This document shows, piece by piece, positions 18,468 through 21,246 of a stretch of DNA of 64,000 nt; position 1 is the first letter of the stretch, and each line of letters opens with the position of its first letter. Source of the stretch: Octopus vulgaris (taxonomy: Eukaryota); contig OX597823.1 in NCBI GenBank assembly GCA_951406725.2, positions 3,038,001-3,102,000 on the forward strand. Reading direction: 5' to 3'. The notes beneath the pieces are model-generated. The model saw nothing but the letters and a program-made list of their open reading frames with translations, did not search any database and was not told the DNA's origin. Position numbers and translations under genes: made by a program.

Positions 18468-20064
18468 ATGTCCCGCTACAATCATCAATTGATCAAAAAC
18501 CTGTTTGAGGCGGATCCTTCGACAGGTTAACATCGCGGTAATTACCAATGGAACTCTCTGGTAAAATCAGTCTTTGATCGATTCCTTGTAGAGTTCGATC
18601 TTCTCTATGGAGCCATACCTTTTGATGAGATAGAGTCATTTCAACCGTTTGGCTAATTTGATATAAGCGTCCACTTGTTTTACGCGACTAAAATGTAGCT
18701 TTCGTTTATTGTTAGGAGTAAGCAAAACTTGTGAAGACTGTTCCTTTGTCAAGAGACGCTCAAAGTGAAACAGTCTTTCACGGAAGTTAGAGTCAATCAC
18801 AATACAAAGAAAAGATCTAATCACACGGAGTGATTACACTAAAATATCTCTTTTTGGTGGAGGGACGAAAACCAAGTATTACTGACCGCCATAGTGTCCC
18901 ATTCAGACATTCCACTTCACTGTTTCCAGCTGGACGGTCGTTGAGTAGCTTTAGTTTAAGGGATATAACTGTTCTCCAAAAAAGACAGGAAAGCATCACA
19001 AGTCATAAACTGAGAGTCTCGTCCTAAAGTAGATTTGAGACTGAAACCTGAAAACAGCGGCTTGCTGTCGGATTTGTCGTGTCTCAACACGCAAGCGCGA
19101 AAGGGAACTTCCTAATCAATGTTTTATAGCAATTAAATGCCATACTTGTCGTTTTACTAATCACAATTATTTCAGTGATGCCTTCTGTCATCGAAGAAGA
19201 TTACGTTGTAACTTCGTCAATAGTCGGAAATCTTCGTGGAATCACGTGGCCTTAAAAAAAAAAACAGGACTTATTAAAGTTACCCTTTGCACAAATTTTC
19301 AGTCTTCTTTTTCTTTCCCTTCCGAGTTCTCGTTTTTGTGTCGTTGATTCTAAGCCAACCCATCCAAGACCTTCACTTTACAAGTATCAATGATTTTCAT
19401 ACAAATAACTGTTGTCGTTTTTATTGATGTATAATTAACTGAAATAACAGGATTTCCTTGGTCAGTAATATATTCATGACATATTAATTCCATTCGTGTT
19501 TGCCTTAATATTTGTACAACAAAAAAAAACTCATAGAGTGCCAAAGGCTATCTCTATTCATTATATATCTTTGTAATAACGAAGATGAATGAGTCTTGTT
19601 TTAGTATCTGAGTATAAATATGTGTATGAGTGTGTGTGTGTGTGTGTGTGTGTGTGTGTGTGTGTGTGTGTGTGCGCACAGGCACACACATGCATATATA
19701 TATATATATATATATATATATATATATACATGTATATACATATATTTTATATATATATATATATATATACATACATACATACATACATACATACATACAT
19801 ACATACATACATATATATATATATATATATATATATAATTAATCAATATAGGGTGGCAAAAAAAATTTTGTAGAATTCTTTTGCCACCAGCGGCCTAGTA
19901 GGAAAAAATTAAAATAGTCATAGACCATTTTTAAGTTCAACATCAACAATAAAGGAACGGCCATAATAGGCCATTCACCCACTAGAAATAACAGCCAAAG
20001 CTTCAACCGCAAATAAAAGTTAATTCAGTAAACCAGGAGAAAATTTAAAAACATTTACCCTGTA

Positions 20065-20171
20065 ATTTCTTATACGATATACCGTTTCATCTGCTGATTA
20101 ATGGTAAACTAACCTGATTAAATTAAATCAAGCCAATCTTCCACAGGCCCTCAGATTCATCAGTAAGAAAT
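20065..20171 (-). ncRNA. Type I hammerhead ribozyme, extended stem II
   Basis: Reverse complement of 20719-20825. Confidence 0.85.
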
Positions 20172-20718
20172 AGCCCAAGACGGAACAGATATTTTCACGA
20201 GGCATTTCCGACGTTGCCAAGTTAATATCTGACCTAAAATTTTCAAATCGTCGCACTCGCGCCAAATTTATCGGCAGCAAATAAATATAAGCCGTCGATT
20301 CCATTACGGAATTAACCAGAAAATTCATAATTAATCAATATAGGGTTTTTAAATTTTCTCCTGGTTTACTGAATTAACTTTTATTTGCGGTTGAAGCTTT
20401 GGCTGTTATTTCTAGTGGGTGAATGGCCTATTATGGCCGCTCCTTTATTGTTGATGTTGAACTTAAAAATGGTCTATGACTATTTTAATTTTTTTCCCTA
20501 CTAGGCCGCTGGTGGCAAAAGAATTCTACAAAATTTTTTTGCCACCCTATATTAATTAATTATGAATTTTCTGGTTAATTCCGTAATGGAATCGACGGCT
20601 TATATTTATTTGCTGCCGATAAATTTGGCGCGAGTGCGACGATTTGAAAATTTTAGGTCAGATATTAACTTGGCAACGTCGGAAATGCCTCGTGAAAATA
20701 TCTGTTCCGTCTTGGGCT

Positions 20719-20825
20719 ATTTCTTACTGATGAATCTGAGGGCCTGTGGAAGATTGGCTTGATTTAATTTAATCAGGTTAGTTTACCATTAATCAGCAGA
20801 TGAAACGGTATATCGTATAAGAAAT
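20719..20825 (+). ncRNA. Type I hammerhead ribozyme, extended stem II
   Basis: Stem I ATTTCTTA/TAAGAAAT; CTGATGA (20727-20733); stem II ATCTG/CAGAT; GAAA (20802-20805); stem III ACGG-TATA-TCGT; GUA triplet. Confidence 0.85.
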
Positions 20826-21246
20826 TACAGGGTAAATTTTCTCCTGGTTTACTGAATTAACTTTTATTTGCGGTTGAAGCTTTGGCTGTTATTTCTAGTG
20901 GGTGAATGGCCTATTATGGCCGTTCCTTTATTGTTGATATATATATATATATATATATATATATATATATATATATATATATATATATATATATATATAT
21001 ATATATATAGAGAGAGAGAGAGAGAGAGAGAGAGAGAGAGAGAAAATTTGTTGCTGAAAATGCACCACCTAAATTTGAAAAACTTGTAATTGTTTTAATA
21101 TAAATTTATTTAAAAACAATTACAAGTTTTTCAAATTTAGGTGCATTTTCAACAACAAATTTTACCTATATTTTTTCCTGCATGAAAATACACCTCCTTT
21201 TGCTTTATATATATATATATATATATATATATATATATATATATAT

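Follow-up and report, generated by a model that had tools for sequence, protein, structure and literature searches.

The window considered here comprises 64,000 nt of the Octopus vulgaris genome (contig OX597823.1, positions 3,038,001 to 3,102,000). At 19836-20937 it contains a young insertion of a non-coding hammerhead unit of 492 nt. This locus and a second one at 8256-9643 each consist of two inverted arms flanked by (TA)n, with one type I hammerhead per arm, and within each locus the hammerheads of both strands are identical. The outer ends of the arms fall at two fixed sites of the unit, E1 and E2. The features are as follows (window positions):

19694..19835, no strand: (TA)n/(TACA)n microsatellite, left side of the target
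19835..20347, minus: inverted arm, ~1.04 units; its 3' end is the distal fixed site E2 (unit ~216, outer end 19835), and it is 5'-truncated at unit ~197
20065..20171, minus: hammerhead of the minus arm, identical to the plus copy; predicted cut between 20073 and 20072
20346..20347, no strand: junction of the inversion; the two 5'-truncated arms overlap here by 1-2 nt
20346..20938, plus: direct arm, ~1.2 units; its 3' end is the proximal fixed site E1 (unit ~110)
20455..20561, plus: segment between E1 and E2, ~106 nt, a PLE-type 'tail' with conserved hairpin folds
20715..20718, plus: 5' strand of the pseudoknot, GGCT; predicted partner GGCC at 20741-20744 in the internal loop of stem II
20719..20825, plus: type I hammerhead; predicted cut at GUA between 20817 and 20818
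20719-20726 with 20818-20825, plus: hammerhead stem I
20727-20733, plus: core CUGAUGA; 20802-20805, plus: core GAAA
20734-20738 with 20797-20801, plus: stem II, carrying a 40-nt hairpin extension at 20748-20787
20805-20816, plus: palindromic stem III
20937..21009, no strand: (TA)n microsatellite, right side of the target
8256..9643, no strand: second insertion, subfamily A, 485-nt unit; E1 left, E2 right, TA flanks, same anatomy as 19836-20937
9315, plus: hammerhead of the second insertion, predicted cut between 9405 and 9406
8479, minus: hammerhead of the second insertion, predicted cut between 8389 and 8388

The two insertions are homologous over their full length (79-81% identity by sequence comparison) and have CTGATGA...GAAAC...GTA in common, which bears out a preliminary description of this DNA on both the homology and the identity of the catalytic core. 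The cleavage position proposed there, 20817/20818, agrees with the predicted cut, and the near-identity of copies within a locus, from which young insertions had been deduced, is reflected in the identical hammerheads of each locus. The unit of ~492 nt given there holds as the period of the family, but a short deletion reduces the period of the plus arm in the window to 483 nt. The start of this plus arm lies ~20 nt past a hammerhead cut site. What had been overlooked is the main feature, an insertion of the PLE type in which the two arms end at two fixed 3' sites.

Elsewhere in the window, apparently unrelated remnants of LINE-type reverse transcriptase ORFs lie on the minus strand at 21339-22898 and 49352-50830 (RVT_1 matches, with zf-RVT weak), and GC-rich minisatellites at 46744-47307 (70-bp, 8 copies) and 43467-43664 (42-bp, 4.7 copies). 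The segments 58808-59736, 29915-30514, and 5249-5632 we take, from their translations, to be fragments of Tc1/mariner-like transposases. Other motifs resembling a hammerhead core occur at 35203 (plus), 48574 (plus), and 51609 (minus); two of these fold no better than shuffles, and the three are probably PLE repeat remnants or chance occurrences.

The genome that was searched (2.8 Gb in 227 contigs) is rich in (TA)n. A tight hammerhead motif has at least 2,343 exact matches in it, compared to 0 for the reversed control. Copies of subfamily B are mostly 97-99% identical and arranged in tandem with a 492-nt period (264 matches among the 39 of 1,046 candidates scored), and across chromosomes they differ by a mean of 3.15 substitutions per unit (8,027 between-locus pairs). 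A-type copies are 85-99% identical (40 of 2,251 scored). Further groups are C, D, and E, with subfamily E ~72% identical to B and built of a 475-nt unit, so that the 'at least two subfamilies' of the preliminary description become at least five groups. A relaxed hammerhead pattern gave 85 matches, and all 12 that were retrieved are copies of the same family (subfamily E and one C-type). The units have no protein-coding capacity: the longest stop-free frames span 45-76 aa and are unconserved among 13 representatives, no PLE protein match lies inside the units, and an ORF with RT and GIY-YIG, as expected of an autonomous PLE, is absent from them. An open frame of 68 codons in subfamily B is likewise unconserved and is attributed to chance.

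The 121-nt ribozyme regions of the two window loci fold better than 200/200 shuffles (z -3.4 and -5.7), and the structure has the three helices and open stem I of a type I hammerhead. In an alignment of 17 units derived from BLAST, the core CUGANGA/GAAA/NUH is constant in 16/17, N7 is any of the four bases, and N17 is A or C; the first pair of stem II is frequently mismatched (A-C, A-A) in some subfamilies. An Rfam scan of the 64-kb window returned 0 matches at the gathering score, probably because of the long insert in stem II. A predicted 4-bp pseudoknot between the leader and the stem II loop can pair in 17/17 units. Where the leader GGCT faces GGCC in the window copy, other copies have GGTT with GACC, AACC, or AGCC; subfamily E carries a C-G to U-A double change, a U-G intermediate is found, and several changes are one-sided. 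This pseudoknot may provide a tertiary contact between stem I and stem II. Stem III is computed to fold at -0.2 to -1.0 kcal/mol alone and at -13.6 to -18.7 as a self-duplex, and its palindrome would suit cleavage as a dimer, in line with the double-hammerhead model in which stem III pairs between two ribozymes (PMC4209133). In the predicted minimum-energy fold of subfamily B, the CUGA core is sequestered by pairing and the probability of stem I is ~0.1; UCAG of stem II (window 20794-20797) is able to pair there with CUGA (20727-20730), a pairing that is missing from subfamilies C and A. It may act as an attenuator that favors uncleaved multimers.

The preliminary description based its case for selection on a comparison of two copies, and these examples are weak by themselves. 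The stem II difference between ATC/GAT and ATCTG/CAGAT, presented as compensatory, is one of length. For stem I, three double changes do exist, but probably represent one slipped pair, while the stem III changes cited are one-sided wobble shifts (G-U to G-C, A-U to G-U); a true double change in stem III is confined to the palindromic loop (TGCA/TATA), whose pairing requires two ribozymes. A larger alignment, the test named there, retained the covariation signal. Among 17 BLAST-derived whole units with 39 pairs, 98.0% of cells are paired compared to 95.1% after shuffling (0/500), and both sides changed at 6 pairs compared to 4.2 in shuffles (22/500), while the count of further pair types is no higher than in shuffles (500/500). 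Once subfamily E was included, the 438 hammerhead copies sorted into 53 classes of haplotype; in 16 of these, picked by hand, both sides changed at 13/31 paired positions, with 97.0% paired compared to 88.8% shuffled (0/2000). Both shuffle tests ignore kinship among the copies, and copy extraction was anchored on the hammerhead core. Across subfamilies stem II changes from ATCTG/CAGAT to AGTGT/ACACT, and the hairpins around the two end sites covary too (7/59 pairs in one set). That the structure of the ribozyme is under selection, in a mobile family that is young and non-coding, as first claimed from two copies, is supported by the wider alignment together with the near-identity of the B copies.

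The anatomy of the insertions was compared over 93 loci picked as non-redundant, a set that includes both L015 and L016 although their flanks are the same. Both outer ends lie at defined sites in 60/93 loci, and in all 60 one arm ends at E1 (unit ~110) and the other at E2 (unit ~216) (31 + 29); none of the 60 pairs E1 with E1 or E2 with E2. The remaining 33 comprise 22 that are single-armed or have one arm below detection and 11 with one end elsewhere; loci with aberrant 3' ends continue into unrelated DNA. Most insertions are flanked by (TA)n. Among the exceptions, L013 is a direct insertion of three units that lacks both an inverted arm and TA flanks; its target is apparently duplicated over ~13 bp, and its 5' end lies ~8 nt past the predicted ribozyme cut. 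Inner ends are scattered and frequently overlap by 1-5 nt. Arm lengths range from under 0.1 to over 10 kb, and arms traverse the ribozyme site repeatedly; the longest measures ~21 units (10.4 kb). Mean substitutions amount to 1.68 between the arms of a locus (65 pairs), 1.87 within arms (293 pairs), and 3.15 between loci (8,027 pairs), and the low divergence between arms indicates that both derive from a common source. One locus (L130) has seven full units without a single substitution over both arms, while in two others (L109, L146) the same variant recurs in non-adjacent units. Such recurrence would not be expected from a monomer circle alone and suggests unequal exchange or templates that were multimeric.

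The 5' ends of the arms accumulate just downstream of the predicted ribozyme cut. In unit positions 468-492, at or just after the predicted cut 470/471, 23/161 arms begin compared to 8.2 expected (92 loci). For arms longer than 750 nt the count is 14/78 compared to 4.0 expected, with 1 in the 25 nt upstream, and for B loci 16/65 compared to 3.3 expected; pattern-picked loci have no excess (3 of 51 arms, 2.6 expected). Several arms start within 1-2 nt of the predicted cut, and in one locus (L128) both arms end at it after two full units. This accumulation would fit run-off synthesis on linear multimers cut by the ribozyme, but it could also reflect stalling of the RT at stem I rather than cleavage. 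The very long arms fit circular templates or later expansion.

Contigs from four sequencing runs were compared with the unit. One contig end, from a run presumed to be RNA (X2), matches a unit junction on the ribozyme strand except that 10/12 A are read as G, and a search of the genome with a 20-letter part of this variant gave 0 matches. The pattern suggests hyper-editing of a sense transcript, on the basis of single low-depth contigs and the presumed nature of the run. Single self-closing contigs of 523 nt in two further runs (X1 and X18) are compatible with a circle or a tandem alike.

A PLE protein nicks and extends both strands at AT-rich DNA in vitro, with two RNA start sites that define the tail (PMC11167929), and PLE insertions are characterized by a 5'-truncated copy in inverse orientation, a tail on one side, and a (TA)n bias (10.1101/2021.04.23.441226). 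The pairing of E1 with E2, the inverted truncated arm, and the TA targets of the octopus family constitute a PLE signature, and the features of a PLE derivative were found: an inverted 5'-truncated copy beside a tandem, two RT start sites, and a (TA)n or AT-rich target. Tandem units that each bear a type I hammerhead also make the family a retrozyme. On the features tested, it is a non-LTR retrozyme whose insertions are marked like those of a non-autonomous PLE.

Two types of PLE in the genome are candidates for the enzyme. A Neptune-type PLE is very abundant (7,023 candidates with RT and weak GIY-YIG matches) and young (150/150 scored matches 100% identical over 82 aa), with open frames up to 1,200 aa; it ends in (TA)n and has a hammerhead-like motif with a variant core in the terminal repeat. 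Fragments of this type also lie in the window, at 60272-61607 and 9742-9960, and at loci L111-L116. Hydra-type PLEs form at least four families with 39-47% mutual identity (L125, L126, L148-L167), some with intact ORFs of 840-900 aa. Pfam did not recognize these ORFs; their assignment rests on motifs defined in PMC8557442, of which RWK-like and DKT are found, plus CxCX5C in one family. Their terminal repeats have (TA)n ends and hammerheads with a long stem II, a palindromic stem III, and GUA or GUC sites, and one family has two TA-joined 3' ends. No autonomous PLE whose terminal repeat is homologous to the unit was found among the best 150 of 5,091 Hydra-type candidates. As sequence partners, six Neptune-type loci gave no nucleotide match at E<1e-3 and 22 Hydra-type loci short motif matches only (best E 0.005). 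Local alignment of the retrozyme with nine PLE 5' regions gave z values of at most 2.5 against shuffles, which is not significant, and a pattern for an ORF start following the unit had 0 matches. Since the similarity to PLE repeats is not significant, the PLE partner is inferred rather than found.

Head-to-head arms ending at E1 and E2, TA flanks, variable 5' truncation, variants shared between arms, and a conserved hammerhead fold are seen directly in the sequence. We consider it probable, with good confidence, that a non-coding retrozyme is mobilized in trans by a PLE enzyme that nicks both (TA)n strands and primes at two fixed sites ~106 nt apart on the same RNA. Ribozyme-strand transcripts of the arrays would in part cleave themselves, probably through a double hammerhead, and release linear multimers and probably circles. 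A PLE RT/GIY-YIG protein, most likely of the Hydra type by a slight preponderance of the odds, with Neptune next as a rather doubtful candidate, would make one cDNA per nick. The two cDNAs would be joined via their truncated 5' ends, so that an inverted multi-unit array would arise in one event, and later unequal exchange may alter the unit number. Points that weigh against this reading are the PLE partner not found among the candidates compared, the 33/93 loci that lack two defined ends, the missing 5'-end excess in pattern-picked loci, the variants recurring in L109 and L146, and the predicted subfamily B fold that sequesters the core. A bolder version, which we hold tentatively and at somewhat under even chance, takes the loci as a fossil record of the PLE reaction: a PLE dimer would prime both strands on one template (a cut multimer, or a circle read up to ~21 times), the pseudoknotted, dimer-acting hammerhead would cut in vivo, and the host would hyper-edit the RNA from A to I. 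With both cDNAs from a single template joined head to head, the arrays would then be born whole.

The arrays might instead be solo PLE terminal repeats that turned into tandem minisatellites by local duplication and unequal crossover after insertion, their repeat RNA being immobile; such post-insertion growth is discussed in bioRxiv 10.64898/2026.07.22.740005. The variants common to non-adjacent units in L109 and L146 would agree with this, as would L015 and L016, which lie 63 kb apart on one contig (C11) with identical flanks and differ in length by about one unit; the latter look like duplicates, segmental or haplotypic, whose copy number changed afterwards. However, an ORF-bearing parent with this repeat was not found, near-identical multi-unit arrays occur on many chromosomes with their arms ending at E1 and E2 each time, and L130 has its seven full units free of substitutions over both arms, which makes this explanation improbable.

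Inverted arms could also come from a retrozyme or SINE driven by LINEs, since twin priming generates inversions and LINE RT ORFs are present in the window. Twin priming, however, leaves one 3' end and non-overlapping segments, whereas here each arm has its own fixed 3' end, the arms overlap in sequence, and poly(A) is absent; we regard this origin as very unlikely. Long inverted arms between TA flanks likewise resemble the terminal inverted repeats of a foldback or MITE-type DNA transposon, but the outer ends are offset by a fixed ~106 nt, arms with scattered inner ends can be shorter than 0.1 kb or longer than 10 kb, and it is at the level of RNA, G-U wobble intermediates included, that structure is conserved, which leaves this as the least credible of the alternatives.

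The retrozyme class and its link to PLEs are already in print (PMC7229834; bioRxiv 10.64898/2026.07.22.740005), and these sources also propose PLEs as origin or mobilizer of metazoan retrozymes. Like the non-LTR retrozymes described there, the octopus family consists of non-coding tandem units with a type I hammerhead each, low GC, and dispersed arrays in a genome where PLEs co-occur. Unlike them, its hammerhead has a ~68-nt insert in stem II and a predicted pseudoknot, and its unit measures 475-495 nt compared to 170-400 nt in Cervera and de la Pena 2020 (PMC7229834), in the accessible text of which the words 'inverted' and 'cephalopod' are absent; that of Li et al. (bioRxiv 10.64898/2026.07.22.740005) mentions neither two-arm insertions with inversion nor end sites that are fixed. 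With Hydra-clade PLEs (PMC8557442) and the Poseidon element PAc (PMC11167929) the family shares the (TA)n target, the inverted 5'-truncated copy, the one-sided tail between two start sites, and a hammerhead upstream of both sites, and with the local Hydra-type copies it shares hammerheads with a long stem II and a palindromic stem III. It differs from these PLEs by lacking an RT/GIY-YIG ORF and significant homology to the PLE repeats examined, and its tail is ~106 nt compared to 30-40 nt in Penelope. The N-terminal-EN clades are described as devoid of canonical hammerheads (PMC8557442). The non-autonomous Chlamys PLEs (MRC1, PMC8557442) are a further parallel as non-autonomous PLE derivatives in multicopy head-to-tail insertions; these are green-algal, and their 3' end resembles that of the autonomous partner. 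In the literature searched, the anatomy of two arms with two start sites, the accumulation of 5' ends, and the pseudoknot were not found; repeat databases such as Repbase and Dfam may already list the family.

PLEs have been called 'a strong candidate' for moving animal retrozymes (PMC7229834), and the more recent account leaves the mechanism open and discusses array growth by unequal crossover (bioRxiv 10.64898/2026.07.22.740005). The added value of the octopus family lies in the anatomy of its insertions: the element is of a known kind, but its mechanism has left unusually clear traces. Its hammerhead is a variant overlooked by Rfam, and its 492-nt RNA offers a minimal substrate for asking how the inverted and tail structures of PLEs form and whether a circle can act as template. 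With their PLE ends, paired arms, and 5' ends near the predicted cut, the thousands of young copies give direct genomic support for the mobilization of retrozymes by PLEs.
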